This document shows positions 2,141 through 53,802 of a DNA stretch of 64,000 bases, piece after piece. Each line of letters begins with the position of its first letter. Position 1 is the stretch's first letter. The notes beneath the pieces are model-generated. The model saw only the letters and a list, made by a program, of their open reading frames with translations. It was not told the DNA's origin and made no database searches. Both the position numbers and the translations under genes were made by a program. Source of the DNA: Rhynchopus sp. YZ270_cl-10 (lineage: Eukaryota); assembly GCA_964035575.1 (NCBI GenBank), contig OZ037837.1, positions 1,116,001 through 1,180,000 of the forward strand, read 5' to 3'.

Positions 2141-2281
2141 GTGAGCGTATTTCTGTTTTGGCTCTCGGTGAGGAGGGTGTGTGTCATGAAAATTCCCCCC
2201 CTGAATTGGGAAAAATATTAGAGACCTTAACCTACAGGAACATCACACACAAACCTGCAAACCCGCTACAACATCAGCTAA

Positions 2282-5200
2282 AAACGCGCCGTTTCTCAGA
2301 AAACAGACGCTTTTGTTCGAAACGCGCCGTTTCTCAGAAAACCGACGCTTTTGTTCGAAACGCGCCGTTTCTCAGAAAACCGACGCTTTTGTTCGAAACG
2401 CGCCGTTTCTCAGAAAACGGACGCTTTTGATCGAAACGCGCCGTTTCTCAGAAAACCGACGCTTTTGTTCGAAACGCGACGTTTCTCAGAAAACCGACGC
2501 TTTTGTTCGAAACGCGACGTTTCTCAGAAAACCGACGCTTTTGTTCGAAACGCGCCGTTTCTCAGAAAACGGACGCTTTTGTTCGAAACGCGCCGTTTCT
2601 CAGAAAACCGACGCTTTTGATCGAAACGCGCCGTTTCTCAGAAAACGGACGCTTTTGATCGAAACGCGCCGTTTCTCAGAAAACCGACGCTTTTGATCGA
2701 AACGCGCCGTTTCTCCGAAAACGGACGCTTTTGTTCGAAACGCGCCGTTTCTCAGAAAACCGACGCTTTTGTTCGAAACGCGCCGTTTCTCAGAAAACCG
2801 ACGCTTTTGTTCGAAACGCGCCGTTTCTCAGAAAACCGACGCTTTTGTACGAAACGCGACGTTTCTCAGAAAACCGACGCTTTTGTTCGAAACGCGCCGT
2901 TTCTCAGAAAACCGACGCTTTTGTTCGAAACGCGACGTTTCTCAGAAAACGGACGCTTTTGATCGAAACGCGCCGTTTCTCAGAAAACGGACGCTTTTGA
3001 TCGAAACGCGCCGTTTCTCAGAAAACGGACGCTTTTGTTCGAAACGCGCCGTTTCTCAGAAAACGGACGCTTTTGTTCGGAACGCGCCGTTTCTCAGAAA
3101 ACCGACGCTTTTGTTCGAAACGCGCCGTTTGTCAGAAAACCGACGCTTTTGATCGAAACGCGCCGTTTTTCAGAAAACCGACGCTTTTGTTCGAAACGCG
3201 CCGTTTCTCAGAAAACGGACGCTTTTGTTCGAAACGCGCCGTTTTTCAGAAAACCGACGCTTTTGTTCGAAACGCGCCGTTTCTCAGAAAACGGACGCTT
3301 TTGTTCGAAACGCGCCGTTTGTCAGAAAACCGACGCTTTTGATCGAAACGCGCCGTTTTTCAGAAAACCGACGCTTTTGTTCGAAACGCGCCGTTTCTCA
3401 GAAAACGGACGCTTTTGTTCGGAACGCGCCGTTTCTCAGAAAACGGACGCTTTTGTTCGGAACGCGCCGTTTCTCAGAAAACCGACGCTTTTGTTCGAAA
3501 CGCGCCGTTTGTCAGAAAACCGACGCTTTTGTTCGAAACGCGACGTTTCTCAGAAAACCGACGCTTTTGTTCGAAACGCGCCGTTTCTCAGAAAACCGAC
3601 GCTTTTGTTCGAAACGCGACGTTTCTCAGAAAACCGACGCTTTTGTTCGAAACGCGCCGTTTCTCAGAAAACCGACGCTTTTGTTCGAAACGCGACGTTT
3701 CTCAGAAAACCGACGCTTTTGTTCGAAACGCGACGTTTCTCAGAAAACCGACGCTTTTGTTCGAAACGCGCCGTTTCTCAGAAAACCGACGCTTTTGATC
3801 GGAAAGCGCCGTTTCTCAGAAAACGGACGCTTTTGATCGAAACGCGCCGTTTCTCAGAAAACGGACGCTTTTGTTCGAAACGCGCCGTTTTTCAGAAAAC
3901 CGACGCTTTTGTTCGAAACGCGCCGTTTCTCAGAAAACCGACGCTTTTGATCGGAAAGCGCCGTTTTTCAGAAAACCGACGCTTTTGATCGAAAAGCGCC
4001 GTTTTTCAGAAAACCGACGCTTTTGATCGAAACGCGCCGTTTTTCAGAAAACCGACGCTTTTGTTCGAAACGCGCCGTTTCTCAGAAAACCGACGCTTTT
4101 GATCGAAACGCGCCGTTTTTCAGAAAACCGACGCTTTTGATCGAAACGCGCCGTTTTTCAGAAAACCGACGCTTTTGATCGGAAAGCGCCGTTTCTCAGA
4201 AAACCGACGCTTTTGTTCGGAACGCGCCGTTTCTCAGAAAACGGACGCTTTTGTTCGAAACGCGCCGTTTGTCAGAAAACCGACGCTTTTGTTCGAAACG
4301 CGCCGTTTCTCAGAAAACGGACGCTTTTGATCGAAACGCGCCGTTTCTCAGAAAACGGACGCTTTTGATCGAAACGCGCCGTTTCTCAGAAAACGGACGC
4401 TTTTGTTCGGAACGCGCCGTTTCTCAGAAAACCGACGCTTTTGTTCGAAACGCGCCGTTTGTCAGAAAACCGACGCTTTTGATCGAAACGCGCCGTTTTT
4501 CAGAAAACCGACGCTTTTGATCGGAAAGCGCCGTTTCTCAGAAAACCGACGCTTTTGTTCGAAACGCGCCGTTTCTCAGAAAACGGACGCTTTTGTTCCA
4601 ACCGCGCCGTTTGTCAGAACACCGACGCTTTTGATCGAAACGCGCCGTTTTTTCAGAAAACCGACGCTTTTGATCGGAAAGCGCCGTTTCTCAGAAAACC
4701 GACGCTTTTGTTCGAAACGCGCCGTTTCTCAGAAAACGGACGCTTTTGTTCCAACCGCGCCGTTTGTCAGAACACCGACGCTTTTGATCGAAACGCGCCG
4801 TTTCTCAGAAAACCGACGCTTTTGTTCGGAACGCGCCGTTTCTCAGAAAACGGACGCTTTTGTTCGGAACGCGCCGTTTCTCAGAAAACCGACGCTTTTG
4901 TTCGGAACGCGCCGTTTCTCAGAAAACGGACGCTTTTGTTCGAAACGCGCCGTTTTTCAGAAAACCGACGCTTTTGTTCGAAACGCGCCGTTTGTCAGAA
5001 AACCGACGCTTTTGTTCGAAACGCGCCGTTTCTCAGAAAACGGACGCTTTTGTTCGAAACGCGCCGTTTCTCAGAAAACCGACGCTTTTGTTCGAAACGC
5101 GCCGTTTCTCAGAAAACGGACGCTTTTGTTCGAAACGCGCCGTTTGTCAGAAAACCGACGCTTTTGATCGAAACGCGCCGTTTTTCAGAAAACCGACGCT

Positions 5201-8012
5201 TTTGTTCGAAACGCGCCGTTTCTCAGAAAACCGACGCTTTTGTTCGGAACGCGCCGTTTCTCAGAAAACCGACGCTTTTGATCGAAACGCGCCGTTTTTC
5301 AGAAAACCGACGCTTTTGTTCGGAACGCGCCGTTTCTCAGAAAACGGACGCTTTTGTTCGAAACGCGCCGTTTGTCAGAAAACCGACGCTTTTGATCGAA
5401 ACGCGCCGTTTCTCAGAAAACGGACGCTTTTGATCGAAACGCGCCGTTTCTCAGAAAACGGACGCTTTTGATCGAAACGCGCCGTTTCTCAGAAAACGGA
5501 CGCTTTTGTTCGAAACGCGCCGTTTGTCAGAAAACCGACGCTTTTGATCGAAACGCGCCGTTTCTCAGAAAACGGACGCTTTTGATCGAAACGCGCCGTT
5601 TCTCAGAAAACGGACGCTTTTGTTCGAAACGCGCCGTTTCTCAGAAAACGGACGCTTTTGTTCGGAACGCGCCGTTTCTCAGAAAACCGACGCTTTTGTT
5701 CGAAACGCGCCGTTTTTCAGAAAACCGACGCTTTTGATCGGAAAGCGCCGTTTCTCAGAAAACCGACGCTTTTGTTCGAAACGCGCCGTTTCTCAGAAAA
5801 CGGACGCTTTTGTTCGAAACGCGCCGTTTTTTCAGAAAACCGACGCTTTTGTTCGAAACGCGCCGTTTCTCAGAAAACCGACGCTTTTGATCGGAAAGCG
5901 CCGTTTCTCAGAAAACCGACGCTTTTGTTCGAAACGCGCCGTTTCTTCAGAAAACCGACGCTTTTGATCGAAACGCGCCGTTTCTCAGAAAACGGACGCT
6001 TTTGTTCGAAACGCGCCGTTTCTCAGAAAACCGACGCTTTTGATCGGAAAGCGCCGTTTTTCAGAAAACCGACGCTTTTGATCGGAAAGCGCCGTTTCTC
6101 AGAAAACCGACGCTTTTGTTCGGAACGCGCCGTTTCTCAGAAAACGGACGCTTTTGATCGAAACGCGCCGTTTCTCAGAAAACGGACGCTTTTGATCGAA
6201 ACGCGCCGTTTCTCAGAAAACGGACGCTTTTGTTCGAAACGCGCCGTTTGTCAGAAAACGGACGCTTTTGATCGAAACGCGCCGTTTCTCAGAAAACGGA
6301 CGCTTTTGATCGAAACGCGCCGTTTCTCAGAAAACGGACGCTTTTGATCGAAACGCGCCGTTTCTCAGAAAACGGACGCTTTTGATCGAAACGCGCCGTT
6401 TCTCAGAAAACGGGCGCTTTTGTTCGAAACGCGCCGTTTTTCAGAAAACGGACGCTTTTGTTCGAAACGCGCCGTTTCTCAGAAAACCGACGCTTTTGAT
6501 CGGAAAGCGCCGTTTCTCAGAAAACCGACGCTTTTGTTCGAAACGCGCCGTTTTTTCAGAAAACCGACGCTTTTGATCGAAACGCGCCGTTTCTCAGAAA
6601 ACGGACGCTTTTGTTCGAAACGCGCCGTTTCTCAGAAAACCGACGCTTTTGATCGGAAAGCGCCGTTTTTCAGAAAACCGACGCTTTTGATCGGAAAGCG
6701 CCGTTTCTCAGAAAACCGACGCTTTTGTTCGGAACGCGCCGTTTCTGAGAAAACAGACGCTTTTGTTCGAAACGCGCCGTTTGTCAGAAAACCGACGCTT
6801 TTGTTCGAAACGCGCCGTTTCTCAGAAAACGGACGCTTTTGATCGAAACGCGCCGTTTCTCAGAAAACGGACGCTTTTGATCGAAACGCGCCGTTTCTCA
6901 GAAAACGGACGCTTTTGATCGAAACGCGCCGTTTCTCAGAAAACGGACGCTTTTGATCGAAACGCGCCGTTTCTCAGAAAACGGGCGCTTTTGTTCGAAA
7001 CGCGCCGTTTTTCAGAAAACGGACGCTTTTGTTCGAAACGCGCCGTTTCTCAGAAAACGGACGCTTTTGTTCGAAACGCGCCGTTTCTCAGAAAACGGAC
7101 GCTTTTGTTCGAAACGCGCCGTTTCTCAGAAAACCGACGCTTTTGTTCGAAACGCGCCGTTTGTCAGAAAACCGACGCTTTTGTTCGAAACGCGCCGTTT
7201 CTCAGAAAACCGACGCTTTTGTTCGAAACGCGCCGTTTTTCAGAAAACCGACGCTTTTGATCGAAACGCGCCGTTTCTCAGAAAACCGACGCTTTTGATC
7301 GGAACGCGCCGTTTCTCAGAAAACGGACGCTTTTGTTCGGAACGCGCCGTTTCTCAGAAAACGGACGCTTTTGTTCGAAACGCGCCGTTTCTCAGAAAAC
7401 CGACGCTTTTGATCGAAACGCCCCGTTTCTCAGAAAACGGACGCTTTTGATCGAAACGCGCCGTTTCTCAGAAAACGGACGCTTTTGATCGAAACGCGCC
7501 GTTTCTCAGAAAACCGACGCTTTTGATCGGAACGCGCCGTTTCTCAGAAAACGGACGCTTTTGTTCGGAACGCGCCGTTTCTCAGAAAACGGACGCTTTT
7601 GTTCGAAACGCGCCGTTTCTTAGAAAACCGACGCTTTTGTTCGAAACGCGCCGTTTCTCAGAAAACGGACGCTTTTGTTCGGAACGCGCCGTTTCTCAGA
7701 AAACGGACGCTTTTGTTCGGAACGCGCCGTTTCTTAGAAAACCGACGCTTTTGTTCGAAACGCGCCGTTTCTCAGAAAACCGACGCTTTTGTTCGAAACG
7801 CGCCGTTTCTCAGAAAACCGACGCTTTTGTTCGAAACGCGCCGTTTCTCAGAAAACGGACGCTTTTGTTCGAAACGCGCCGTTTCTCAGAAAACCGACGC
7901 TTTTGATCGAAACGCCCCGTTTCTCAGAAAACGGACGCTTTTGTTCGGAACGCGCCGTTTCTCAGAAAACGGACGCTTTTGTTCGAAACGCGCCGTTTGT
8001 CAGAAAACCGAC
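2282..8012. repeat. 38-bp tandem satellite, about 150 units, truncated by the gap
   Basis: Consensus AAACGCGCCGTTTCTCAGAAAACCGACGCTTTTGTTCG with a few recurrent variants (CCGAC/CGGAC, TGTTCG/TGATCG, TTTCT/TTTGT/TTTTT). Confidence 0.98.
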
Positions 8013-8212
8013 NNNNNNNNNNNNNNNNNNNNNNNNNNNNNNNNNNNNNNNNNNNNNNNNNNNNNNNNNNNNNNNNNNNNNNNNNNNNNNNNNNNNNNNN
8101 NNNNNNNNNNNNNNNNNNNNNNNNNNNNNNNNNNNNNNNNNNNNNNNNNNNNNNNNNNNNNNNNNNNNNNNNNNNNNNNNNNNNNNNNNNNNNNNNNNNN
8201 NNNNNNNNNNNN
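8013..8212. other. Assembly gap (200 N)
   Basis: Run of N. Confidence 1.
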
Positions 8213-11200
8213 GTGGTCTGCTCTTGCTGAGGAGGAGGACCTTCCACGCAGAATGGACAAGAACGGAATCCGCTACTTCGAACACGAAGTTGCTTTGCAG
8301 GACACAGAACCATGGTCAGATATGCAAGAGGCAGACGTGTGCAGCACGAAGCGCAGAATGTACGAAGGCAGCTACGTTACAAAGCAGCAGTATCTGGACA
8401 CAGTGTGGCGCACAGCAGAGGTGGAGAAGCAGATACGCAGGCAGAACGCTGACGGCTACTTTGTCTTCAAACACGACTGGGATGAAGCCGTGGAGGGTGG
8501 TGCCTGGGAGGACGGGAAGAAGGAGACACTGCCGACGCTTGTGGAGCAGTTGCGGCAGCCCTCTCTCAACCTGTACGACCCAACGGTGTTTGGGAGCCGC
8601 ATTGAAACGGAGGAGAGCAGGGCCCAGCTGCACACGTGGTCGAGGCTGTGGGGTGCTGTGAACGCTGTGCTGGTGACAAGCACGGAGAAGGAGCGGGTGC
8701 TCTTCCGCAAGGTGGAGAATGTGGCGGACACTGTGCTGATCCACCACCTCCACCTGAAGCGTGGTGAGCTGTACTGCCAGCCCGACATCACTCTCTGGGA
8801 TGTGGAGCGCCGCTACAGAAACCGTGCTGTGAAGCACGAGAACGACAGCAGAAGCGAGACACAGGAAGCAAGGACGAAGGTGGACTTCACGTCTGACTTC
8901 AACGACAACTCAGGAAGACTGTGGGAGGCGTCAGAGCGCAGATGGACAGGGAGGGGTGGCGAGGAGGCTGCGTATGAAGGCGAGCTTTGCTACGAACATG
9001 AGTTCAAAGACAAATGCATGCAGGCACACAAGCAGGCACGCAAGGAAAGAGGGGAGGACGTGGGGTTTGATCTGAACACGTTACTCAGATGGGAAGATGC
9101 GAAGCCTGAGGACCCTTTCCTGACACACGTCCCTGGCGAGCAAGTTGAGGTGGAGACACGCAAGAACAGCAGCAGCACCATGACAACGATTCTCTTCAGC
9201 GCGCACGGGAAGATGCACGGCGAGTGTGTGGGGCTGCTGAGCGACGGACACGACTTCCTCCTCCCTGCGCTTGAGATGTTTATTGTGGAGGATGTTCAGG
9301 CACGTGGCACGTGCCTCCATGTCAGCCTCATCTCACGTGGCTCGCTGCTGCGCACGGACAAAGAGCTCCGTGCCTGGTGCTCTGGCATACAGCGGACTGG
9401 CCTGCGTTCTGTTTGGGGCAAGAACGGTGTCACGGATGAGTGTTTGCGTCCTGAGAGCAAGGCAGCAAAGGACGATACATTGGACAGGCAGAGCTTCTTG
9501 TGCACAGACGAGTGTGACGTGTTCTTCAGCCGCAAGTCTCAGATGCTCCACGGAACGGAACGGGAGGCAATGTTGCACGATCTGACGGACACTGTCAGAC
9601 CTGTGAATGACAGCGCATCTTTCAAGATGCAGGGTGCAAACGGACAGGTGAGGAACCATAGTGCGTGCACCCTGCCTTTGGCTGTGCCCACTACGTACCG
9701 CCCAGGGAAGACGTTTTTGAGTGGGTTGAACCGCAAGAAGCGTCCTGAAGGGGATCACACTGCAGAAGGCATGCCAAGAACACACGGCGACGAATTCCCA
9801 CTCATCCCGCACGTGGAACTCGCGGAGGATTGGGAGAAGGATATGGATGTGAACGATGTGGTCGCTGTTTCGGGAGCATCCATCCAGGCCTACCACGATG
9901 AGCACACAGACGAAGACGCGTTCTTCAAGACGATAGTCAAGCATGCGCGTGACACACCTGAGGAGTGCCCCCCGCCTGTGAGCGATGTGTACGGAGGGAA
10001 GGAGTTCCGCATCACTGTCGGGGAGGTGCAGCAGCTGCTGAAGACAACCACGATAGTCACGTCGCCGTCCCTCCCACTGCGTTTTGTGCAGTGTCTGATC
10101 GGCTCGTTCACGTCTGCGAAACAGCGTCTGCTGTTCTTCTACATATTCCGTGCAACGTCGCTGCTCAGCATCAGTATCAGCATCGAAGAAGATTGGGAAC
10201 GTGAGAAACGCATTATCAGAGATGACTTTCTAGCTGCAGTTGCAAGGGACGAAGAATACCTAGACTCTGAACGTAGTGCCCTTGACGCACGTGGCGCGAC
10301 GGAATCCTACCACCTCGCTCTGTTTCTGTTCAACCTTAACAAAACACCACTTGAGTATCTGGACGGCAAGTTTGATGACGACGGTGCAGAGCCTATTGAA
10401 GTCACCCGTGACAAGTTCACATCGTGGATGGCCACCGTACAGGCGGAACCTGCACAGTACGGCTTCACCTCAAAGGAACATGCGAGACAGACGTTGGCGA
10501 AGTCGCTGGTCGAACTGAGCACAGAAATGTGCGTCTCGCAGCAGGGCTTCTCCTTCACCTCCGGCACGGACGGTGAGCACAGCCAGCTCTGTGAGAAGAC
10601 GCACCACAGCATCGCCATCCTTGTGGCCACTGGGATGGACTTCTGTGAACGAAGACCCACCCTGCGTGAGGCACCAAAGTACTTCGTGAGAATAGCACGT
10701 GAAGGAACAAAGGCACACAAGGGCTGGACCTACTTCCAAGAAGGGAAGGAACGTGAATTTGTGGACCGTCTGAAGGTGCTGTACACATGCATCTTCGAAT
10801 CTGCAAGGAAACAGCGTGTGCGGAACATGTGCGCCATCCCTGTGTATCTTAATAATTATTCAGCTTGCCTTGGGTATGAGCTGAAACTTCAAGTTGCAGA
10901 AATGTACTTGCGTGCGCAGTTCGAACTCCTTGCAGAACAGGATTGGGGTTTTGAAAACGTATGCATGCTCTTTGTCTTGCTTTGTCTCACTTCTTGCTCT
11001 TTCATGTATGCGATACTGTCCTCCCCTCCTGCAACTAAGAAGGAGGACAGTGAAGCTGTCTGAATGGCGGCCACACTAAAGCAACAGATTATCAAGAACA
11101 AGAAAACAACAGCAGCAGAAAACCAAAACCCCATCTTTGTTTCAAAGACTTTATTGTGTTCCTCTTTCACATTACCTTTAATCACTGCACAACAGTACTG

Positions 11201-11696
11201 GTTGAGGGCTCAGGATGACACCGATATGGCACGCCGCATCTTGAAGAAAGGACTGCACGAGTGTGGCGACTACAACAACGAGGCACAGGGGTTGTATTTG
11301 AGGTGCAACATCGTTTTGCACAAGAAAGACGCGAAGTTTCTTGCAGTACGCCTCGCACAGCTGAAGAAATCACCTGCGCTTTTGTCCCCATCTGAATCGC
11401 CGGCACTGCTGCAGGGACAGCACGGCATGTATTGGGAGGAAGGGAGGGATGACTACTATTTTGACGTCGAAGACTGGGCGGCCACATCGACAGGTGCGCT
11501 GATGAACTACAACATTTCGAAGAAGGCACTTAACCTCGACTTTTCTGCATTGAACAGCAACGAAGACACCAGCTCCGTTGCCGATGAAGGTGATGAAGAC
11601 TTCGCTGCAGTTGGAAGACGGATGAATCGGCCGTTGCGGGCTTCGCGTTGCAGTGGAGGAGACGATAGCGCAGCTGCACTGAACGGACGTGGCTAG
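8213..11696 (+). CDS. Large hypothetical protein, 5' end in the gap; probable exons <8213-10958 and 11196-11696; possible degenerate ADP-ribosyltransferase-like domain
   Basis: Long open frame with coding-like composition; GTATGC at 10959 and ACAACAG ending 11195 join WGFEN|YWLRAQ in frame and remove the stop at 11061-11063. Confidence 0.75.
10959..11195 (+). other. Probable GT-AG intron, 237 nt, phase 0
   Basis: Donor GTATGC, CA-rich acceptor, lower-GC interior, in-frame join of the two flanking ORFs. Confidence 0.7.
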
Positions 11697-12121: not shown

Positions 12122-12260
12122 AGAGCCACACTTCACCGACAGGTAGAGGTGTGTGCGTTTCACCACAGGGTACGAAGTGATCAGCAAAGCTGAGGTGGCC
12201 AAGATAGTGATCTTGTTATTGGGTGTGTGCGTTTCACCACAACCTCTCCCTGTCTTTATT
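12122..12260 (+). repeat. Dispersed SINE-like short repeat; other copies ~22350-22446(-), ~30199-30260(+), ~56549-56625(+), ~57638-57717(-)
   Basis: Shared core GAGCCACACTTCACCGACAGGTAGAGGTGTGTGCGTTTCACCACAACCTCTCCC followed by a TTTATTG-rich tail. Confidence 0.75.
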
Positions 12261-12522
12261 GTCTTTATTGTCTTTATTGTCTTTATTGTCTTTATTGTCT
12301 TTATTGTCTTTATTGTCTTTATTGTCTTTATTGTCTTTATTGTCTTTATTGTCTTTATTGTCTTTATTGTCTTTATTGTCTTTATTGTCTTTATTGTCTT
12401 TATTGTCTTTATTGTCTTTATTGTCTTTATTGTCTTTATTGTCTTTATTGTCTTTATTGTCTTTATTGTCTTTATTGTCTTTATTGTCTTTATTGTCTTT
12501 ATTGTCTTTATTGTCTTTATTG
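12251..12522. repeat. (GTCTTTATT)n 9-mer array, about 30 units
   Basis: Direct reading. Confidence 0.98.
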
Positions 12523-12539
12523 GGGTGATCTGGGGTCTT

Positions 12540-12710
12540 TTTTTTCAAGATTATTCACAAGCCATTCACAAAAATTCACAAAAATTCACAAATATTCACG
12601 AAAACCTACACACCCGCGTATCACGTGTGTTTCCGCCTCGTTGTGAATTTTTGTGAATTTATGTGAATTTTTGTAATTTTTTGTGTTTTTTTGTGATTTT
12701 TTTTTTGGTT
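12540..12710. repeat. Inverted arrays of ATTCACAAAA / TTTGTGAAT motifs (fold-back or MITE-like)
   Basis: ATTCACAAAA-like copies at ~12553-12603 mirrored by TTGTGAATTT-like copies at ~12641-12700. Confidence 0.6.
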
Positions 12711-12846
12711 TTTGGTGTGGTGCATAACCGATTACCCGTGTTTCTACCAGTTTAAACGACGGCATTTGCATTTCCGGAATCCGCCCGGCCAGTGGTGGGG
12801 TCAATTTGCCGAAATGGACAAGTTCTCGTTTTTGGTCAATTTCCGC

Positions 12847-13097
12847 ATACACAGTATACACAGTATACACAGTATACACAGTATACACAGTATACACAGT
12901 ATACACAGTATACACAGTATACACAGTATACACAGTATACACAGTATACACAGTATACACAGTATACACAGTATACACAGTATACACAGTATACACAGTA
13001 TACACAGTATACACAGTATACACAGTATACACAGTATACACAGTATACACAGTATACACAGTATACACAGTATACACAGTATACACAGTATACACAG
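12847..13097. repeat. (ATACACAGT)n 9-mer array, about 28 units
   Basis: Direct reading. Confidence 0.98.
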
Positions 13098-13106
13098 GGG
13101 ATTGGG

Positions 13107-14944
13107 AGTACAGTACAGTACAGTACAGTACAGTACAGTACAGTACAGTACAGTACAGTACAGTACAGTACAGTACAGTACAGTACAGTACAGTACAGTA
13201 CAGTACAGTACAGTACAGTACAGTACAGTACAGTACAGTACAGTACAGTACAGTACAGTACAGTACAGTACAGTACAGTACAGTACAGTACAGTACAGTA
13301 CAGTACAGTACAGTACAGTACAGTACAGTACAGTACAGTACAGTACAGTACAGTACAGTACAGTACAGTACAGTACAGTACAGTACAGTACAGTACAGTA
13401 CAGTACAGTACAGTACAGTACAGTACAGTACAGTACAGTACAGTACAGTACAGTACAGTACAGTACAGTACAGTACAGTACAGTACAGTACAGTACAGTA
13501 CAGTACAGTACAGTACAGTACAGTACAGTACAGTACAGTACAGTACAGTACAGTACAGTACAGTACAGTACAGTACAGTACAGTACAGTACAGTACAGTA
13601 CAGTACAGTACAGTACAGTACAGTACAGTACAGTACAGTACAGTACAGTACAGTACAGTACAGTACAGTACAGTACAGTACAGTACAGTACAGTACAGTA
13701 CAGTACAGTACAGTACAGTACAGTACAGTACAGTACAGTACAGTACAGTACAGTACAGTACAGTACAGTACAGTACAGTACAGTACAGTACAGTACAGTA
13801 CAGTACAGTACAGTACAGTACAGTACAGTACAGTACAGTACAGTACAGTACAGTACAGTACAGTACAGTACAGTACAGTACAGTACAGTACAGTACAGTA
13901 CAGTACAGTACAGTACAGTACAGTACAGTACAGTACAGTACAGTACAGTACAGTACAGTACAGTACAGTACAGTACAGTACAGTACAGTACAGTACAGTA
14001 CAGTACAGTACAGTACAGTACAGTACAGTACAGTACAGTACAGTACAGTACAGTACAGTACAGTACAGTACAGTACAGTACAGTACAGTACAGTACAGTA
14101 CAGTACAGTACAGTACAGTACAGTACAGTACAGTACAGTACAGTACAGTACAGTACAGTACAGTACAGTACAGTACAGTACAGTACAGTACAGTACAGTA
14201 CAGTACAGTACAGTACAGTACAGTACAGTACAGTACAGTACAGTACAGTACAGTACAGTACAGTACAGTACAGTACAGTACAGTACAGTACAGTACAGTA
14301 CAGTACAGTACAGTACAGTACAGTACAGTACAGTACAGTACAGTACAGTACAGTACAGTACAGTACAGTACAGTACAGTACAGTACAGTACAGTACAGTA
14401 CAGTACAGTACAGTACAGTACAGTACAGTACAGTACAGTACAGTACAGTACAGTACAGTACAGTACAGTACAGTACAGTACAGTACAGTACAGTACAGTA
14501 CAGTACAGTACAGTACAGTACAGTACAGTACAGTACAGTACAGTACAGTACAGTACAGTACAGTACAGTACAGTACAGTACAGTACAGTACAGTACAGTA
14601 CAGTACAGTACAGTACAGTACAGTACAGTACAGTACAGTACAGTACAGTACAGTACAGTACAGTACAGTACAGTACAGTACAGTACAGTACAGTACAGTA
14701 CAGTACAGTACAGTACAGTACAGTACAGTACAGTACAGTACAGTACAGTACAGTACAGTACAGTACAGTACAGTACAGTACAGTACAGTACAGTACAGTA
14801 CAGTACAGTACAGTACAGTACAGTACAGTACAGTACAGTACAGTACAGTACAGTACAGTACAGTACAGTACAGTACAGTACAGTACAGTACAGTACAGTA
14901 CAGTACAGTACAGTACAGTACAGTACAGTACAGTACAGTACAGT
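13107..14944. repeat. (CAGTA)n pentanucleotide array, about 367 units, no visible variants
   Basis: Direct reading. Confidence 0.98.
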
Positions 14945-15017
14945 CTTTATTGTCTTTATTGTCTTTATTGTCTTTATTGTCTTTATTGTCTTTATTGTCT
15001 TTATTGTCTTTATTGTC
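14943..15017. repeat. (GTCTTTATT)n 9-mer array, about 8 units
   Basis: Direct reading. Confidence 0.95.
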
Positions 15018-19713: not shown

Positions 19714-19775
19714 TAACGTCGTTGCCCCAACACCACAACCCCACCACACAACAGAGCAACACAAAAGAAGACAAA

Positions 19776-21628
19776 ATGGAACTGACCATCAAGGACTGCT
19801 CCAACAACTTGTACGTGATCGAGGTGGGTGTGGATGACACAACGGAGACGATGCGGCAGAAGGTGGCGACTGCAGCAGGGTTGGCTGAGGACAGCTTCCA
19901 CATGGGCTTCGGAGGGAAGCAGGAAGGAGAGGACATCACGCAGCTGAGTGCTGGAGACACAGTCGTGCTGACGAAGACGAAGAAGGTGTGGCGTACCGTC
20001 TGCAACGCAGCTCCGAAGGCATGTCTGAGGCGGAGCTCCGTGGTGGCGATAGAGCGAGAGGTACATGGATGGGGGAGTATTCTGCTGAGACGGCGTACCC
20101 CTCCACAGAAGTTAGGGGCAGGAGGGCACTACCATTCATCCAGCGGGCTGAACAGGAGACATCTGCGCATGCTCGCTACCGGCACCATGAGCACGTGCGT
20201 CCAGGGGACGCACCCGTGAAGGCACCTGAAGGAGCGGTTCCGATCTTCCAGTTTGCGATATGTGTGCTGCACCGGAAGACGAAGTGTGATGCCTGCTCGA
20301 AGAACGCCCAGGCAGACCTGATGCATTGCTGCTTTGCGCACCACTCCAACGACGACGGGTTACCGATCCGACACGAAGCATGCACTAAGCATAGACTCTC
20401 GAGGTGCGGGAACTGTGTGCAAGAGAAGAGTACGCTGGATCACTGCTGCCGCCGCCACCACGACACCTCGAAGGGGCGACAGACGACGCTGGGAGGCTTC
20501 TTCAAGAAGAAGCAGACGAAGCAGAAGGATGGGCACAGCAGGGGCGGTGATGGACTTATGTAACATCACCTCCACGATGTATTGTATCACCTATCTCGGA
20601 TAGGGGTGCATGCATCGAAAACGGGCCCCCACCAGCTGACGAAGACGAAGAAGTACGAAGCCCTTGCAGAGCTTCATGCGTTGGGTGAGACCGATATCAC
20701 TGCAGAGAGGCTGGAGACTGTGGAGGATCCTGTGGTGGCGTGTTTGCTTCTGCAGGCAGAGGTTGCGACTGTCATTCCGGATGGCTTCTTGGCAGAGGCA
20801 TCGTTAACAACACTTGATCTGAGTGCTGTTTCGTGTGTGACGGAAATAGGTGACTATTTCCTTGCTGGGTGCACAATGTTGACAAGTATCAACCTCTCTG
20901 GGTTGTGCAATGTGACGCGGATCGGTGAGAACTTTCTTCAAGGCTGCAAGAGCCTCACAGCATTAGACTTGACACCACTCAGCAGGATTGCACACATAGG
21001 TGATCGCTTTCTTTCCCACTGCAGGAGCCTCACAGAACTAAAGTTGTCAGCACTCCGCAGAATTACGCAAATAGGCGACAACTTTCTTGAGGAGTGCAGC
21101 GGCCTCACAGAACTAGACTTGCCACCACTCAGCAATGTTACACAAATTTACGAATACTTTCTTGCCGGCTGCCGGGGCCTGACAGCATTAAACTTGTCAC
21201 CACTATGCAATGTTACACGCATAGGCGGTTGCTTTCTTCTCGGCTGCAGGAGCCTCTCAGAACTAGACTTGACACCACTCACCAATGTTGCGCAAATAGA
21301 CCGAAGATTTCTTGCCTTCTGCACCAGCCTCACAGAACTAGACTTATCACCACTCAGCAGGATTGCACACATAGGCGAATATTTTCTTTCCCGCTGCACC
21401 AGCCTCACAGTGCTTGACTTGTCCCCACTTGGCGCAGTCATGGACATGGGTCCACTACCTGCTCACGAGTACACTTCGTTGAAGAGCATCCACCTCTCCG
21501 GCTGCAGCAGCGCTGTGTCGAGTCGAGTACAGGAAAGCAACCTGAAGGAGCTTGTTGATGCACGTCCGAAACGTAGCAGAGACGAATCTCCCGAGCAGTG
21601 CCGCAAGCGACGGAGAGGCTCAGAATGA
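19776..21628 (+). CDS. UBL-LRR-NLS protein copy A (9 LRR units), interrupted by a 650-bp insertion or intron at 19986-20635
   Basis: First 70 codons match the family UBL; the LRR part resumes after duplicated LTKTKK codons; 394 aa if precisely spliced. Confidence 0.8.
19986..20635 (+). mobile_element. 650-bp insertion with GT...CAG ends and 18-19 bp target-site duplication
   Basis: (G)CTGACGAAGACGAAGAAG at 19967-19985 and 20635-20653; absent from five paralogs. Confidence 0.9.
20021..20563 (+). CDS. Insert-encoded Cys/His-repeat protein with C-terminal PIP-box motif (possibly 5' truncated)
   Basis: Two C-x2-H-x4-C-x2-C-x8/9-HCC-x2-HH units and QTTLGGFF followed by a Lys-rich tail; frame open from the insert's 5' end. 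Confidence 0.6.
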   Translation: MSEAELRGGDRARGTWMGEYSAETAYPSTEVRGRRALPFIQRAEQETSAHARYRHHEHVRPGDAPVKAPEGAVPIFQFAICVLHRKTKCDACSKNAQADLMHCCFAHHSNDDGLPIRHEACTKHRLSRCGNCVQEKSTLDHCCRRHHDTSKGRQTTLGGFFKKKQTKQKDGHSRGGDGLM

Positions 21629-23073: not shown

Positions 23074-25227
23074 ATGGAACTGACCATCAAGGACTGCTCC
23101 AACAACTTGTACGTGATCGAGGTGGGTGTGGATGACACAACGGAGACGATGCGGCAGAAGGTGGCGACTGCAGCAGGGTTGGCTGAGGACAGCTTCCACA
23201 TGGGCTTCGGAGGGAAGCAGGAAGGAGAGGACATCACGCAGCTGAGTGCTGGAGACACAGTCGTGCTGACGAAGACGAAGAAGTACAAAGCCATTGCAGA
23301 GCTTCATAAGTTGGGTGAGACCGATATCACTGCAGAGAGGCTGGAGACTGTGGAGGATCCTGTGGTGGCGTGTTTGCTTCTGCAGGCGGAGGTTGCGACT
23401 GTCATTCCGAATCGCTTCTTAGCAGACACATCGTTAACAACACTTGATCTCAGTGCTGTTTCGTGTGTGACGGAAATTCGTGACAATTTCCTTGCTGGGT
23501 GCGCAACGTTGACAAGTATCAACCTCTCTGGGTTGTGCAATGTGACGCGGATTGGTGAAGGCTTTCTTTCCAGTACAGGCCTCACAGCATTAGACTTGAC
23601 ACCACTCAGCAGGATTACGCAAATAGATGGTTCGTTTCTTGTCGGCTGCAGCGGCCTCACAGAACTAGACTTGTCGCCACTCAGCAGGATTGCACACATA
23701 GGTGATGGCTTTCTTGCCCGCTGCACGGGCCTCACAGAACTAGACTTGACACCACTCAGCAGGATTGCGCAAATCGACGAAAGCTTTCTTGAAGGCTGCA
23801 GCGGCCTCACAGCATTAGACTTGACACCACTCAGCAGGATTACGCAAATAGATGGTTCGTTTCTTGTCGGCTGCAGCGGCCTCACAGAACTAGATTTGTT
23901 GTCACTCAGCAGGATTGCACACATAGGTGATGGCTTTCTTGCCCGCTGCACGGGCCTCACAGAACTAGACTTGACACCACTCAGCAGGATTGCGCAAATC
24001 GACGAAAGCTTTCTTGAAGGCTGCAGCGGCCTCACAGCATTAGACTTATCACCATTCAGTAGGATTGCACACATAGGCGGTTGGTTTCTTCTCGGCTGCA
24101 GCAGTCTCACAGAACTAGACTTGACACCACTCAGCAGGATTGCGCAAATAGGCGAAAGCTTTCTTTCCGGCACAGGCCTCACAGAGATAGACTTGGCACC
24201 ACTCAGCAGGATTGTAAAAATAGATGGTTGCTTTCTTCTCGGCTGCAGGAGCCTCACAAAATTAAACTTGACACCACTCAGCAGGGTTGCGCAAATAGGC
24301 GAAAGGTTTCTTGAGGAGTGCAGCAGCCTCACAGAACTAGACTTGACACCACTCAGCAATGTCACAGACATAGGCGATTGCTTTCTTAACGACTGCAAGA
24401 GCCTCACAGTGCTGAACTTGGCACCACTCAGCAAGGTTACGATAGTTGGTAGTTTCTTTCTCTACGGCTGCAGCGGCCTCACAGAACTAGACTTGACATC
24501 GCTCGCCAATCTTACACAACTACGTGAATACTTTCTTGCCACCTGCACAGGCCTCACAGCATTAGATTTGTCGCCACTCACCAGGATTACACAACTTGGC
24601 GAGAACTTTCTTCAAGGCTGCAAGAGCCTCACAGTATTAGACTTGTCGCCACTCAGCAGGATTGCACACATAGGCGAAAGCTTTCTTGCCAACTGCTGGG
24701 GCCTCAGAGAACTAAACTTGTCGTCACTCAGCAATCTTTCAGACATTAGTGGTTGGTTTCTTGAGGACTGCAGGAGCCTCACAGAACTAAACTTGACACC
24801 ACTCAGCAATGTTACAGACATAGCTGACTGTTTTCTTGACGGCTGCACCAGCCTCACAGAACTAGACTTATCGCCACTCGAAAATATTGTGCAAATAGGA
24901 GAGTGCTTTCTCGACAACTGCAGCGGCCTCACAGAACTAGACTTGACGCCGCTGTGCATGGTTTATAAAATCGGTGATGGCTTTCTCGCCAACTGCACCA
25001 GCCTCACAGTGCTTGACTTATCCCCACTCGGCATAGTCATGCACATGGGTGAGCTACATGCTGACGAGTACACTTCGTTGAAGAGCATCCACCTCTCCGG
25101 CTGCAGCAGCGCTGTGTCGAGTCGAGTACAGGAAAGCAACCTGAAGGAGCTTGTTGATGCACGTCCGAAACGTAGCAGAGACGAATCTCCCGAGCAGTGC
25201 CGCAAGCGACGGAGAGGCTCAGAATGA
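23074..25227 (+). CDS. UBL-LRR-NLS protein copy B (22 LRR units, 717 aa)
   Basis: Intact ORF; UBL-like N-terminus, 25-aa repeats LTELDLxPLSxxxxIGxxFLxxCxx, C-terminal KRSR...RKRRR. Confidence 0.93.
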   Translation: MELTIKDCSNNLYVIEVGVDDTTETMRQKVATAAGLAEDSFHMGFGGKQEGEDITQLSAGDTVVLTKTKKYKAIAELHKLGETDITAERLETVEDPVVACLLLQAEVATVIPNRFLADTSLTTLDLSAVSCVTEIRDNFLAGCATLTSINLSGLCNVTRIGEGFLSSTGLTALDLTPLSRITQIDGSFLVGCSGLTELDLSPLSRIAHIGDGFLARCTGLTELDLTPLSRIAQIDESFLEGCSGLTALDLTPLSRITQIDGSFLVGCSGLTELDLLSLSRIAHIGDGFLARCTGLTELDLTPLSRIAQIDESFLEGCSGLTALDLSPFSRIAHIGGWFLLGCSSLTELDLTPLSRIAQIGESFLSGTGLTEIDLAPLSRIVKIDGCFLLGCRSLTKLNLTPLSRVAQIGERFLEECSSLTELDLTPLSNVTDIGDCFLNDCKSLTVLNLAPLSKVTIVGSFFLYGCSGLTELDLTSLANLTQLREYFLATCTGLTALDLSPLTRITQLGENFLQGCKSLTVLDLSPLSRIAHIGESFLANCWGLRELNLSSLSNLSDISGWFLEDCRSLTELNLTPLSNVTDIADCFLDGCTSLTELDLSPLENIVQIGECFLDNCSGLTELDLTPLCMVYKIGDGFLANCTSLTVLDLSPLGIVMHMGELHADEYTSLKSIHLSGCSSAVSSRVQESNLKELVDARPKRSRDESPEQCRKRRRGSE

Positions 25228-26549
25228 TAGAAGGCCGGTGCGTTTGCAACCGGCAAGAGCACAGTCAGCCGCATCTGCATCGATGCGTCAGAGGCAACCC
25301 GCAGTACCATGGTCCGAAGCTTCTGTGAACTGTTGTTACGTTTTTGCTCTCGTTTGTCGGTCTTGCCACGAGAAGGGGTAATAGGGTAATAGGGGAATAG
25401 GGTCGGGGTGGGTACGACATTGGGGGATTCACGCATTCTTTGTTTCGATTTCTTTTCCTGAAGAAGGGTTTTAGTTGGGGAGGGGAGGTGGGGTGTTTGG
25501 GTAAGTAATGTGTGAAGAACAGCGAAGCCAAACATTCTTGTAAGAGGAGTGTACGTCTTGTGTTCACATCTAAAAGCAAAACTGTGAGGGAGACATACAA
25601 GTGTATCGTGTGGAAGAGAGGTAGGGAGTGGGGGTGTTCTGTTAAAAGGTGCCGTGTTACGACCTGGCAACTTCCAGCAGTAGGTTAAGTAATCTTTCTT
25701 GTAAATTGTTGGATCATTATCTCCTCAGTGCATGAATGCCCCACGTGACTGGACACTTTTGTGTTTGTCATGTGGAGCTGTGGTTGCTCTTTCACGACTT
25801 TTTTCCTGTTCCTGGGTACCTGGACCTGGACCTGGGTATCTGGGTATCGGTACCTGGGTACCTGGGTACCAAGAAGGCAAAAAATCAAGAATCCGGATTA
25901 TGCGACAATGTGGATTATTAATCCACATTGTCGTAATCCACATTTTTAGAGTCCACATTGTCGTTTCCCCTTTTTTTTTTATATAGTAAACTGCTTATCA
26001 ACTTAAACCCGCAAACCCAGACCAGAATATTGAACGAGGATAGTGGTGTGGGAAGTATCCAAGTGGTTACTACACCTTTTGGGTCTGAACTGTCCTTTTT
26101 GCAAACGTTTTGGGTCTCTTAAATCTGGGGTGGAACAGGGATATGGTGCTTTTCGTGCATATGGGTGCACCATGTTCTTTGCTAAGAGAACGAAACAAAA
26201 TGAAATAGAAGCAACGCAAAGGGGACTGTTCAACAAGTATACTCCACGAACGTTTTCCCCTCCATCCCTCATATTTTGATACTAACTCGCCGTGTGCGCT
26301 GTGCTCCACACAGCACAACGTAACGTCCACGAAACACGGTGCTGGCATTTGTGCGGGAAGGGGAGGCACAAAGAACGCTGTCACTTCTGTGGTGATGAAT
26401 GGTGCAGAAGCTTGGCAACGATTACCAGCCTCTCACTCACCTTTCCTGTGTGCTGCAGTCTTGAACGCACACTCTGTTTCCATCCCATGCCACCCACCCA
26501 ACCCCTTCCAGACACCCCTGCACCCTCCCACCTCTTCGAAACACACAAC

Positions 26550-28772
26550 ATGGGTTCTGACACGCAGCCCACCGCACCACAGATGCCGAGCTGTGAGAAC
26601 TGTGGCGTGCCTGCACAGCTGCAGTGCGGGATGTGCGTGGAGCTGTTCTTCTGCGACAAGCCTGCGTGCTATGACGCTTGCCACACAAGGCCACGTGACC
26701 GTGAGGCACATCGCGCTTCTGTGACTGCGTTCGGGACATCGTCGAAGTGTGCACTTCACCCAGGCCAAGAGCTGTGCCTCGTCTGTGAAGACCCTGCGTG
26801 TGGAGACGCGTTGATCTGCACTCGCTGTGACAAGTGCGACACACATGTGGGACACAAGACAGTTTACATCACGGACTACATGAAACGCCAGCGTGACACC
26901 CTCTGCTCGCACGTGGCAGACCTGACAACACAGCGGACTGCTGCAAAGGAGGAGTGCCGTGTGCTTGAGGCACTCCCTCCCACAGAGGACAGGTACAAAG
27001 ACCTTCTCCTGCAGACACACGTCGGGCACCTCGTGATGCGTGAGGATGTGTCGCGCAGCGAAGTCATGTGTGAGGAGGAGGTGGTACGGAGCTGCCTCGC
27101 ACAAACACTCAGTCGTGAAGGGGAGGTGTGTGCGCTGAAGACGTTTGTTGCGAAGGCAGGACGCGCGATTGCTGAGTGCGAGGCGGTGTGCCAGCTTGGG
27201 GACGACCAGGTGTTGCGTGCGGTCACAGAGTCGCAGGCCATTATGCGGAACATCAACAGCATGGCAGCGAGTGGAGACCGCCACCGCCTTGTGGGTGCTG
27301 CACACCCACACGCAACGTTTTCCCTGAAGCTGCCTGTTTCGAACGTGCACGACGCCCTTGCCCAGATGTTGGCAAGGTTGCCACTTTTTGGTGATGGTTT
27401 CCCGCCATCCGCAGCCTCAAGCTCGTCAGGTGCAGCAGGGTTCCCGTCGTTTGCCCCGAGCAGCAGTGCTGCTGGTGCAGCGTCCTCAAGCGCCGCAGCA
27501 ACTGGTGGTTTCCCATCGTTTGCAGGAAGCTCGTCCAGCGCAACAGGGGGCTTCCCGTCGTTCGGCCCCAGTAGTGGAAACACATCAACAGCGACAGCAA
27601 CAACAGCAGCCTCCTCAAGCGCTGCAGCAGGTGGTTTCTCCTTCACTGCGAATAGGTCCGCATCAGCGAAAGGCGGCTTCCCTTCGTTTGCAGCATCAAC
27701 AGCAGCAGCAGCCTCCAGCACGACAGGGGGGTTCCCTTCCTTCTCTGTCTCTAGTTCCTCTGCACCTGCAGGCGGAGGGTTCCCTGCATTTGCCCCTACC
27801 TCCAGCATAGCAGCAGGCTTCCCTTCGTTTGCAGCATCAACAGCAGCCTCATCCAGCACGACAGGGGGTTTGTATGCCTTCTCTGCCTCTAGTTCATATG
27901 CACCTGCAGGCGGAGGGTTCCCTTCGTTCGGTAGCACTGCCCCTGCTGCAGCTGAACCGGCTGGGTTCAGCTTCGGAGCAACCTCAGCAGCGGCAACACC
28001 GTACTCAGCTACCCCCGCAGCAGCCGCATCAACGGGGTTCAGCTTCGCCCCTCCCACAACGCAGGTCAACACGCAGAGGAGGAAGCAGGATGCCATTGCA
28101 GCACTTCGTGTGTTGGGTGAGACAACACTTACAGCGGAAAGGTTGAAGCAGGTGAATGATCAGCGCAGTGATCCGAAGGTGGCTTGCTTGCTCCTGCAGG
28201 CAGGAGTTGCGACTGCGATTCCAGACAACTTCTTCTCGAGAACCAGAGTGACGTGCATTGATCTCAGTCATGCGTCTGCTGTGACTGTGATTGGGGACGA
28301 ATTTCTTCATGACTGCACAGCTTTGACCAAAGTTGACTTCAGTGGATTGCAAGCTGTCACCTCAATTGGGTACAGGTTCCTGCGTGGGTGCACAGCATTG
28401 TCGACAGTTGATCTGAGTGCATTCCAAGCTGTCACCTCGATCAGGTACTCGTTCCTCAAGGGGTGCACATCCTTGACCAAAGTTGACCTCAGTCCTTTAC
28501 GAGCGGTCACTGCGATTGACGAAGCGTTCCTGGCTGAGTGCACATCAGTGTCAACAGTTGACTTGAGTGGATTCCAAGCAGTCATCAGGATTGGGGACTG
28601 GTTCCTCAGCGGGTGCACATCATTGTCCACAGTTGACTTGAGTGCATTGCAAGCTGTCACCTCGACTGACAGGTACTTCCTCGGTGGGTGCACATCATTG
28701 AAGACCTTGCACGGAAAGGAAAAGTGCAGCAATGCTGTACTCAGAGTGCTACCACAACACCTACGACAGTGA
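26550..28772 (+). CDS. B-box1/B-box2/coiled-coil + GFPSF-repeat low-complexity region + LRR protein (alternative start 26487)
   Basis: CENC...CGMC...C...C...H...H and CALH...C...C...C..C...H..H zinc motifs, helical region, Ala/Ser/Gly region with GFPSF repeats, 25-aa LRRs. Confidence 0.88.
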   Translation: MGSDTQPTAPQMPSCENCGVPAQLQCGMCVELFFCDKPACYDACHTRPRDREAHRASVTAFGTSSKCALHPGQELCLVCEDPACGDALICTRCDKCDTHVGHKTVYITDYMKRQRDTLCSHVADLTTQRTAAKEECRVLEALPPTEDRYKDLLLQTHVGHLVMREDVSRSEVMCEEEVVRSCLAQTLSREGEVCALKTFVAKAGRAIAECEAVCQLGDDQVLRAVTESQAIMRNINSMAASGDRHRLVGAAHPHATFSLKLPVSNVHDALAQMLARLPLFGDGFPPSAASSSSGAAGFPSFAPSSSAAGAASSSAAATGGFPSFAGSSSSATGGFPSFGPSSGNTSTATATTAASSSAAAGGFSFTANRSASAKGGFPSFAASTAAAASSTTGGFPSFSVSSSSAPAGGGFPAFAPTSSIAAGFPSFAASTAASSSTTGGLYAFSASSSYAPAGGGFPSFGSTAPAAAEPAGFSFGATSAAATPYSATPAAAASTGFSFAPPTTQVNTQRRKQDAIAALRVLGETTLTAERLKQVNDQRSDPKVACLLLQAGVATAIPDNFFSRTRVTCIDLSHASAVTVIGDEFLHDCTALTKVDFSGLQAVTSIGYRFLRGCTALSTVDLSAFQAVTSIRYSFLKGCTSLTKVDLSPLRAVTAIDEAFLAECTSVSTVDLSGFQAVIRIGDWFLSGCTSLSTVDLSALQAVTSTDRYFLGGCTSLKTLHGKEKCSNAVLRVLPQHLRQ

Positions 28773-52378: not shown

Positions 52379-53802
52379 CTTTTCTTTTCCCTCAAAAGTG
52401 GTCCGTTTTTGTGCCAAGACCCAACACCTTTGCACCCCTCTGGGAGCGATCTGTCAAAAGAAGGCCGAAAAACGGTGTTTTGAGCAGTTTGAAGCACTTT
52501 CCTGTTTTTCCTGCTAAAACCTCACTTTTCCCTTTGCCATATGGCGATAATGGGCGATACTAGGGAACCTGCACTCACCATTTGACCTGTTCGGAGCTCC
52601 TTGGCGTTCACCTTCATCTAGAAGCACGCCGCATAGCTTCGACTACGTGTGGAGCTTCCGACACAACTGTGTCCTGCACCTCTATACACTTTGCACAGAG
52701 GTGCTGGCACATCTTATAGTGCAGCGTCTGTGGGCTATGGGCTTTACAATGCCTTCATTTCGGTTGCGTCACCCTTTTCACGACGAAACTTGCTGGTCAG
52801 AAGTGAATCATTCACCCAAAAAGGTTATTTCTAAGAAAGCCACAACGTTCTGCTTTCTGTTTGGTGGCTGCGCATTACCTATGCATTTTTGGGAACCCTG
52901 GACACATTGCCACAGCCACTTACACAAGAAGTCGAGCGCTGTGCAGGCAGGTCAGCTGTTGACCATAAAGCGCGTCTGACCCTTCCAGTGCGGCAGGGGG
53001 GAGGAAGGGTTTGAGACAGTGGCTCTTTGTTCTAGCCTTCGTGTGCAGGGGAGGTGTTGGTTCAAGCAACGTAGGTATTCCTTGTTCCTTCGAGGGATGC
53101 AAGGGCGACGAGGCGGAACTGGAACGAAAAATCCAATAAAGGAGGGAAAAGGCACAGTCAGCCCAGAGCCACTCAATGCCCTCTGGGGGCACGGTGCACT
53201 GGGTGGGCTGGTGGGCGGGATCGCAGGAGGGAGACGTCGTTGTCGGAGGACACAGGTGCAGGGCACGTTGTGTGGTAGTGCAGCACGACTGGTTCTGGCT
53301 CGATGTGCAGTGTGTTGTCGTTGTGATGCTGGGGTGGAACAGGGACGTGCCCAGCCATGGGGTGCTTTCGTGCATTTGTCTGGCACCTCGGCTTGCCGTG
53401 GTTGCAGCACGAGAGCACCTTTGGCGTTCTTGCTGGGGTCGGTGGGGTGGGGTGCGCTGGTGTGGGGTGCCTATCTTGGGTGGTGTTTTTATTCAGTGTG
53501 TGGGTTCACTTTCGCGACATGGCACTGTGCCGTCTGTGTCTCTCAGGCAGGTGGCAGCTGTGCACATCTCCCCACTTACCCTGGGAGTGGTAGAGGGGCA
53601 GCGGGGTGTGTGGGAGGAGGGGGAGAGGCAGTGGGTGGGGGTGGGATCGCAGCAGCGGTTGTGCATGCTTCGGAGGAGGCAACCGATGCACGACACGGCC
53701 AACGATAGGTGGCAAGTGAAATGACAAGCGAGTCACTTGTTAATGACAGACAATATTACACTCACAATCCACACACACACAGATCTCAAAAAACACAGAA
53801 AA

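Follow-up and report, generated by a model that had tools for sequence, protein, structure and literature searches.

Results

The 650-bp insert that interrupts a UBL-LRR gene in the window (the whole 64,000-nt stretch of DNA analysed) is most probably the 3' end of a 5'-truncated LINE lying at a recurrently used UBL/LRR junction; TPRT with a sequence-preferring endonuclease is its likely mode of integration, and its GT...AG ends are likely a by-product. This reading is carried by a parent ORF with its domains, a duplication of the target, variable 5' truncation and repeated use of one site. The fixed target site in a gene family is the main feature of the locus and had no place in the original prediction, in which the insert was described as an intron-generating retroelement.

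Host gene and paralogs

The host gene, the duplicated target and the paralogous sites in the window are listed below.

19776..19985 (+), 5' part of the host gene: 70-codon ubiquitin-like domain with the linker LTKTKK at its end
19967..19984 (+), left copy of the target-site duplication, probably 18 nt (exact repeat as far as 19985)
20635..20652 (+), right target-site duplication (direct-repeat search)
20654..21628 (+), 3' part of the host gene: LRR cap and BspA-type LRRs (Pfam LRR_5, E 3e-24; frame open)
23265..23283 (+), empty target site, intact paralog of 717 aa
31533..31551 (+), empty target site, intact paralog of 393 aa
33929..33947 (+), empty target site, intact paralog of 444 aa
37782..37800 (+), empty target site, intact paralog of 467 aa
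61677..61695 (+), empty target site, frameshifted paralog with the first stop after 160 aa
58348..60197 (+), second filled paralog, LRR frame open

The UBL of the host matches Pfam ubiquitin at E 0.005, below the cut-off. The UBL parts of seven paralogs show 0–3 differences in 210 nt, and the LRR parts are about 79–86% alike. By default the gene is interrupted, the unspliced UBL frame ending, as predicted, at the stop at 20219. The five empty paralog sites that had been reported are indeed present, with the qualification that one of them (paralog 61486) is itself frameshifted. A second filled gene had been missed: the paralog at 58.5 kb carries a 100% identical insert (58558–59206) at the identical site. 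The two filled paralogs agree at both junctions and have a private variant at 20758 in common, which points to one insertion that was later copied by conversion or unequal crossover; their upstream flanks differ and their LRR bodies are 86% alike.

A conserved C/A-rich leader with a CAG precedes the ATG of every paralog (19724–19775 in the window gene) and is likely a trans-splice acceptor. As the 3' end of the insert is similar in make-up to this leader, a spliced leader might be added there too; past the insert, the first ATG in frame is at 20876, behind two out-of-frame ATGs. In run X10, one UBL-gene contig has a loose end with what we take to be a resemblance to the euglenozoan spliced-leader tail. 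Six open paralogs end in a common basic tail, PKR...RKRRR (21560–21628 in the window gene), which presumably resembles a bipartite nuclear localisation signal, and the LRR proteins may thus be nuclear.

Elsewhere in the window, longer LRR genes with Cys-rich N-termini (26487–28772, 47869–49608 and 53743–55743) form a related second subfamily, some of them with weak B-box and ubiquitin/FERM matches. A 38-bp satellite of about 151 copies (2282–8012) runs into a 200-N gap (8013–8212), and a perfect (AGTAC)n array of 368 copies (12251–15017) lies between perfect 9-bp arrays. Beside the satellite gap are ORFs of 936 aa (8253–11063, +) and 210 aa (11064–11696, +), neither of which has a Pfam match.

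The insert

The sequence confirms a 650-bp insert that begins with GT (19986) and finishes with CAG (20635). It lies in sense orientation relative to the host gene and is made up as follows.

19985..20634 (+), 5'-truncated non-LTR retrotransposon of family A (99% tblastn match to P0017, repeats, contig matches)
19985..20563 (+), ORF2 remnant, codons 1473–1664 plus stop (last 192 codons), in a frame other than that of the host UBL
20261..20461 (+), two finger-like Cys/His motifs in tandem at the C-terminal end of ORF2 (translation)
20480..20503 (+), octapeptide QTTLGGFF (the pattern occurs in 1 of 77 RT proteins)
20575..20617 (+), 3' UTR stem–loop, 43 nt (fold −24 kcal/mol, z −2.56)

The insert is thus coding sequence, namely the C-terminal end of an RT-bearing ORF, a point that the earlier reading did not contain. 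Its 180-aa frame has no Pfam match and shows two Cys/His motifs in translation, which it shares with D. papillatum LINE proteins (blastp, 35–39%). The octapeptide QTTLGGFF resembles what we assume to be a putative PIP box. There is no poly(A) tail in the insert, and a C-rich 3' end adjoins the duplication. The repeat search found neither terminal inverted repeats nor LTRs at the insert ends; a TIR DNA transposon was rejected for want of the terminal inverted repeat.

A small hairpin had been noted at 20590–20604. It is present and forms the tip of the longer stem 20575–20617, which 3 of 200 shuffles equalled in folding. The segment 20576–20629 is retained with one difference in a depth-3 contig of run X10, the flanks of which diverge. 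This retention within differing flanks fits a signal by which the RT recognizes its RNA, and the stem–loop is likely to serve in this way. The exact 3' UTR pattern had 0 matches in the metagenomes.

In runs X5, X7 and X8 there are contigs whose match begins at 19985 and which extend upstream into parent sequence; G19985 and the GT therefore belong to Gly-Val codons of the element.

The parent element

The parent was found by a search for longer proteins, 4 of which were obtained among 407 candidates. The best of these, P0002, is 99% identical to the insert and bears an RT. Whole ORFs were taken from cluster members: P0017 with 1,664 aa for family A and P0024 with 1,666 aa for a sister family, B. 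In P0017 and P0024, respectively, the APE domain is matched by Pfam at E 6e-10 and 5e-11 and the RT domain at E 2e-19 and 1e-19; no RNase H match follows the RT in either at E up to 1. A 2A-type motif lies directly before the APE in both (residues 70–90), P0024 fitting the canonical GD(V/I)ExNPGP and P0017 having His for Asn. LINE-1 ORF2p and R2 are the best PDB matches of the parent ORF.

The window insert begins at ORF2 codon 1473, and the truncation points found in ORF2 are residues 611, 785, 843, 1063, 1094 and 1473, with the 3' end in common. APE and RT, a duplication without LTR or TIR and variable 5' truncation place the element among the APE-type non-LTR retrotransposons. The retro-type origin that had been proposed is therefore right: database proteins supplied a parent with APE and RT domains as well as other copies, at the same junction, that are variably 5' truncated.

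Families A and B are 94% alike over the first 100 columns and 60–93% thereafter. Outside the same family the nearest named relatives among 77 matches are Diplonema papillatum LINE proteins (best 42%), and no trypanosomatid name occurs among these 77. Together with the loose end that recalls a spliced leader, these relatives make a diplonemid host likely. An RT tree of 35 rows, restricted to search hits and with two too-short sequences dropped, gives no resolution for A/B and the D. papillatum P0145 family, which stand at the base of the group, and assigns no clade. Contig depths in run X5 are 2,143–8,879 for element pieces versus 107–130 for gene-specific pieces, which hints at tens of element copies, the depths themselves not being copy numbers. 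Near-identity, among other grounds, indicates that the database proteins probably come from the same assembly as the window.

Repeated use of one junction

A query with the UBL matched 184 clusters, and among 120 listed most are UBL-LRR proteins. Junctions were read from the sequence behind the linker, and out-of-frame tails were tested by codon compatibility. Eleven junctions fall at the same UBL/LRR codon: that of the window and ten from database proteins, four of which involve the element of the window or its sister family and six an OTU-bearing ORF.

P0011, family A: truncated at residue 843, same UBL/LRR codon
P0101, family A: residue 785, out of frame, 40/40 residues compatible (next best 19)
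P0005, family B: truncated at residue 611, same UBL/LRR codon
P0003, family B: truncated at residue 1094, same UBL/LRR codon
P0082, OTU ORF: truncated, 39/40 residues compatible (next best 21)
P0108, P0121, P0136, P0221 and P0222, OTU ORF: whole, in frame with the host UBL

The five full-length junctions may go back to fewer events, some of them being copies made by conversion. Six junctions, those of the window copy, P0101, P0082, P0108, P0121 and P0136, came to light by way of the target and are therefore a biased sample. Among the 24 listed A/B entries found through the element, four show a 5' flank and three of these four are UBL; the other 20 lack a visible flank, and of the 34 family A members 19 lie outside the listing. 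The flanks were read from predicted proteins rather than DNA, where only in-frame or short out-of-frame fusions are visible. In two other LINE families (30 listed entries) none of five visible flanks is UBL, an unbiased but small comparison (Fisher p 0.048) from whose control count P0243 was left out, its apparent flank being diverged element sequence. The count of visible flanks for family C was 0/15, and 0/69 metagenome LINE loci had a UBL, cap, LRR or 3' UTR match. At the other end of the element, five contigs of run X5 run past 20633 with a target-like consensus (agreement 0.59), and X10 contigs behind 20629 also end in target-like letters.

The available part of PMC4494074 calls a LINE target specific when over 20% of its flanks are of one type. 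At the protein level the share is 3/4 of the visible A/B flanks and 5/6 of the whole OTU-ORF entries, three of the latter having been found via the target. The locus also has the features of an RHS-type hot spot, that is, one 5'-coding site in a multigene family with a conserved N-terminus and a variable C-terminus.

The junctions bear on the length of the duplication as well, which had been put at 18 nt. The exact direct repeat is 19 nt (19967–19985 and 20635–20653; chance at given positions about 4e-12), and the true duplication is nevertheless likely 18 nt. In other copies the junction codons change directly after the AA of the last Lys codon: P0003, P0005 and P0082 now have Asn there, which is AA plus an element base, while in the window copy and P0101 the G after AA is also present in the element. 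This suggests a duplication of 19967–19984 with G19985 contributed by the element, and a single rule, a top-strand cut after AA giving 18 nt, would fit all junctions.

It could be argued that there is no true targeting, and that a loosely nicking LINE only appears to have a hot spot owing to insert-tolerant, redundant paralogs and gene conversion. The host family is large, as the number of clusters matched by the UBL query indicates; conversion did copy the window insert; most element entries show no flank; and P0004 is an element copy in a non-UBL gene, behind the target-like peptide MLAVTEK. Yet tolerance and conversion leave unexplained why six different truncation points occur at the same codon and why none of the five visible flanks in the control families is UBL, and we give this explanation little credit.

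Other sequences were also seen at or near this place. In P0071 and P0128 this UBL is followed, from the same linker on, by unrelated domains, suggesting that the linker may also be a domain-shuffling point; these two were not counted as junctions, the joined sequence matching none of the five element ORFs. All eight UBL-LRR genes P0085 and P0265–P0271 are broken in the LRR cap by one shared foreign sequence at a second fixed point, equivalent to about window position 20720. This sequence matches none of the five element ORFs tested and would be either a further element with a target of its own or a single insert that conversion has spread. At 20639, loose ends in runs X1 and X9 carry a different C/A-rich sequence directly before the target Leu codon, perhaps from the 3' end of a further element inserted there.

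The OTU ORF as a candidate ORF1

The OTU ORF is likely the ORF1 of the A/B elements. Near-whole A/B ORF2 entries lie on four contigs told apart by length, three of which also bear the OTU ORF, while on the ORF2-bearing contigs of three other families it occurs in 2/7, 0/10 and 0/6 (pooled p 0.013). In the metagenome locus L023 an ORF upstream of APE/RT remnants contains two blocks homologous to the OTU ORF (E 6e-8 and 6e-7) in swapped order. Five of the six whole OTU ORF entries are open from the first codon and continue the frame of the host UBL; the start of the sixth is Met41. With a fixed cut the in-frame fusions are effectively one observation, so that they give only a hint of host start codon use. 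No reading-frame overlap was found between the end of the OTU ORF and the start of ORF2, and the ESM Atlas had no usable match for the middle of the OTU ORF. Ginger and Helitron elements are known to contain OTU domains (PMC2836005, in part).

Could the insert be spliced?

A join of 19985 to 20636 yields an open frame of 400 aa in which LTKTKK occurs twice, and a join of 19985 to 20654 one of 394 aa; both joins had been proposed and both hold. The ends concerned are as follows.

19986..19991 (+), donor-like GTGTGG, made up by the parental ORF2 codons for Gly1473/Val1474
20626..20635 (+), acceptor-like C-rich stretch ending in CAG, of which the A is the last base of the element and the G belongs to the target

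GGT starts at 8 of 650 insert positions and G|GTRTG at one, the donor. For Diplonemidae, PMC12621601 gives, in the part available, (G)/GTATG donors and acceptors with a C-rich tract and CAG. The window copy, with G/GTGTG and a C-rich CAG, fits this consensus, which may not be that of the host species itself. The AG at 20653, which would restore the gene exactly, is purine-rich and weaker than the CAG at 20635.

One explanation of these ends is a retro-introner, that is, a family adapted to being spliced out, with its own C-rich CAG acceptor and surviving copies enriched for a donor. Besides the fit to the consensus, the added 18 nt keep the frame, the first codon of P0011 is likewise a Val (GT) codon, in full-length copies a Val codon in phase comes one codon later, and introners derived from non-LTR elements exist, making up about 5% of classified families in what PMC12130899 reports. 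The unusually good donor and the open LRR frames of both filled genes would also fit selection for spliceable copies, and the duplication of the event likewise speaks against a mere by-product. Four of the five empty paralogs are open too, and as the insert is very young, open frames say little. Against such a family, only one of the five other truncated junctions begins with GT, which is near chance (0.12), and none of the five full-length ones does; the target G needed for CAG is missing in three of the four other A/B junctions, where Ile or Phe stands before the target Leu; and no YTRAY branch motif lies upstream of 20635, though few diplonemid introns have one. Splice sites are thus absent from most insertions of the family, systematic intron creation is not supported, and a retro-introner is improbable. 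The GT of the window copy, a copy that was picked for its ends, is the Gly-Val coding sequence of the parent at the truncation point. The claim of an intron-generating retroelement is partly supported at best: the retro origin stands and the family-wide splice ends do not.

Under the preferred reading of a truncated LINE at a target site, fortuitous in-frame splicing of the window copy, with six added codons, is plausible, its ends fitting the diplonemid consensus. Partial in-frame rescue of the gene by splicing to 20635 is conceivable, though we would slightly rather expect it not to occur. A 668-nt skip in contigs of X2, X5 and X10 was not taken as splicing, as it equals the empty paralog site. 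No 650-nt skip was found among the contig joints listed, which were not weighed because the contigs are of undefined kind. Long introns of D. papillatum often contain transposons (PMC10161547, in part).

Discussion

A course of events compatible with these sequences can be proposed. The APE would nick the bottom strand immediately ahead of the Leu codon in LTKTKK, and the RT would engage the RNA via the 3' stem–loop. As the element has no poly(A), priming may use read-through into target-like sequence. The top strand would have been cut some 18 nt downstream, where the AA of the last Lys codon ends, and cDNA synthesis would have come to a stop at ORF2 codon 1473; the second paralog would later have received a copy of this single event through gene conversion or unequal crossover.

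A more far-reaching version, which we regard as unlikely, is that of a two-ORF LINE living in a receptor-like family, whose full-length copies would borrow the spliced-leader site, the start codon and the UBL of the host and make a UBL-OTU-ORF1 fusion, and whose donor-bearing copies, that of the window among them, would be spliced out in frame. Such an element would be a site-specific retrotransposon and an intron in one. The C-rich 3' end of the element and the target G would then act as a splice acceptor, and full-length copies might be spliced via the in-phase GT one codon in.

An assembly artefact as the source of the duplicate or the insert could be suspected from the complete identity of the two inserts and from the listed contig pieces, none of which spans the whole stretch, but it is highly improbable in view of the divergent upstream parts and LRR bodies of the filled genes, the clean target duplication and the ten other junctions at the site.

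Among known systems, the closest in working may be the RHS hot spot of Trypanosoma with ingi/RIME and L1Tc (PMC7563717, in part), so that the window element would be a site-preferring LINE of that kind. There, too, APE-type LINEs insert at one 5'-coding site of a euglenozoan multigene family with a conserved N-terminus and a variable C-terminus, and truncate the protein. In contrast, the host family here is UBL-LRR (Pfam) in a likely diplonemid host with abundant cis-splicing, and the element differs from those at RHS by the lack of a Pfam RNase H match and of poly(A), and by a likely OTU ORF1 fused in frame to the host UBL. With Ingi/L1Tc the element has in common a 2A motif before the APE, the RT and two C-terminal Cys/His fingers, whereas Ingi/L1Tc are described with RNase H, poly(A), one ORF and a 5' ribozyme (available parts of PMC3708506, PMC5814959 and PMC12278014), and the element here probably has a separate ORF1.

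Target-specific APE LINEs of the Tx1/R1 type likewise combine an APE, a multicopy target, a fixed 3' junction region and variable 5' truncation, a likeness of features. The targets named for them in the parts of PMC4640811 and PMC4494074 at hand are RNA genes, spliced-leader exons, transposons, microsatellites and telomeric repeats, while the target here is a protein-coding exon. Introners are also TEs in exons with GT and AG ends that use target bases, but they are spliced as a family property in many genes, as PMC12130899 describes in part, whereas here one event has both good ends. The REP element of Tetrahymena, a LINE tied to a young, expanding protist LRR family (PMC6564038, in part), appears to be a looser parallel; it adjoins 90-bp exon/intron units, unlike the insertion in coding sequence at one codon seen here. 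No report of a diplonemid LINE targeting UBL-LRR genes was found in a search of mainly open literature, without Repbase.

The locus thus holds a real, young, truncated LINE at what is likely a family-wide target site. Target lists of site-specific LINEs name RNA genes and repeats, as far as the available parts of PMC4640811 and PMC4494074 go, and RHS is the one protein-coding target case in the partly accessible literature surveyed. The element offers an APE endonuclease with a possible protein-coding target of 18–19 nt. As Diplonemidae splice GT-AG introns, the locus also tests directly by what route a new intron could arise from a truncated LINE. Use of the start codon and the UBL of the host by full-length copies, if it occurs, would be a reason for targeting. 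A second protein-coding case, from a different branch of the Euglenozoa and a different family of genes, would suggest that such elements can find safe havens in expanded families.
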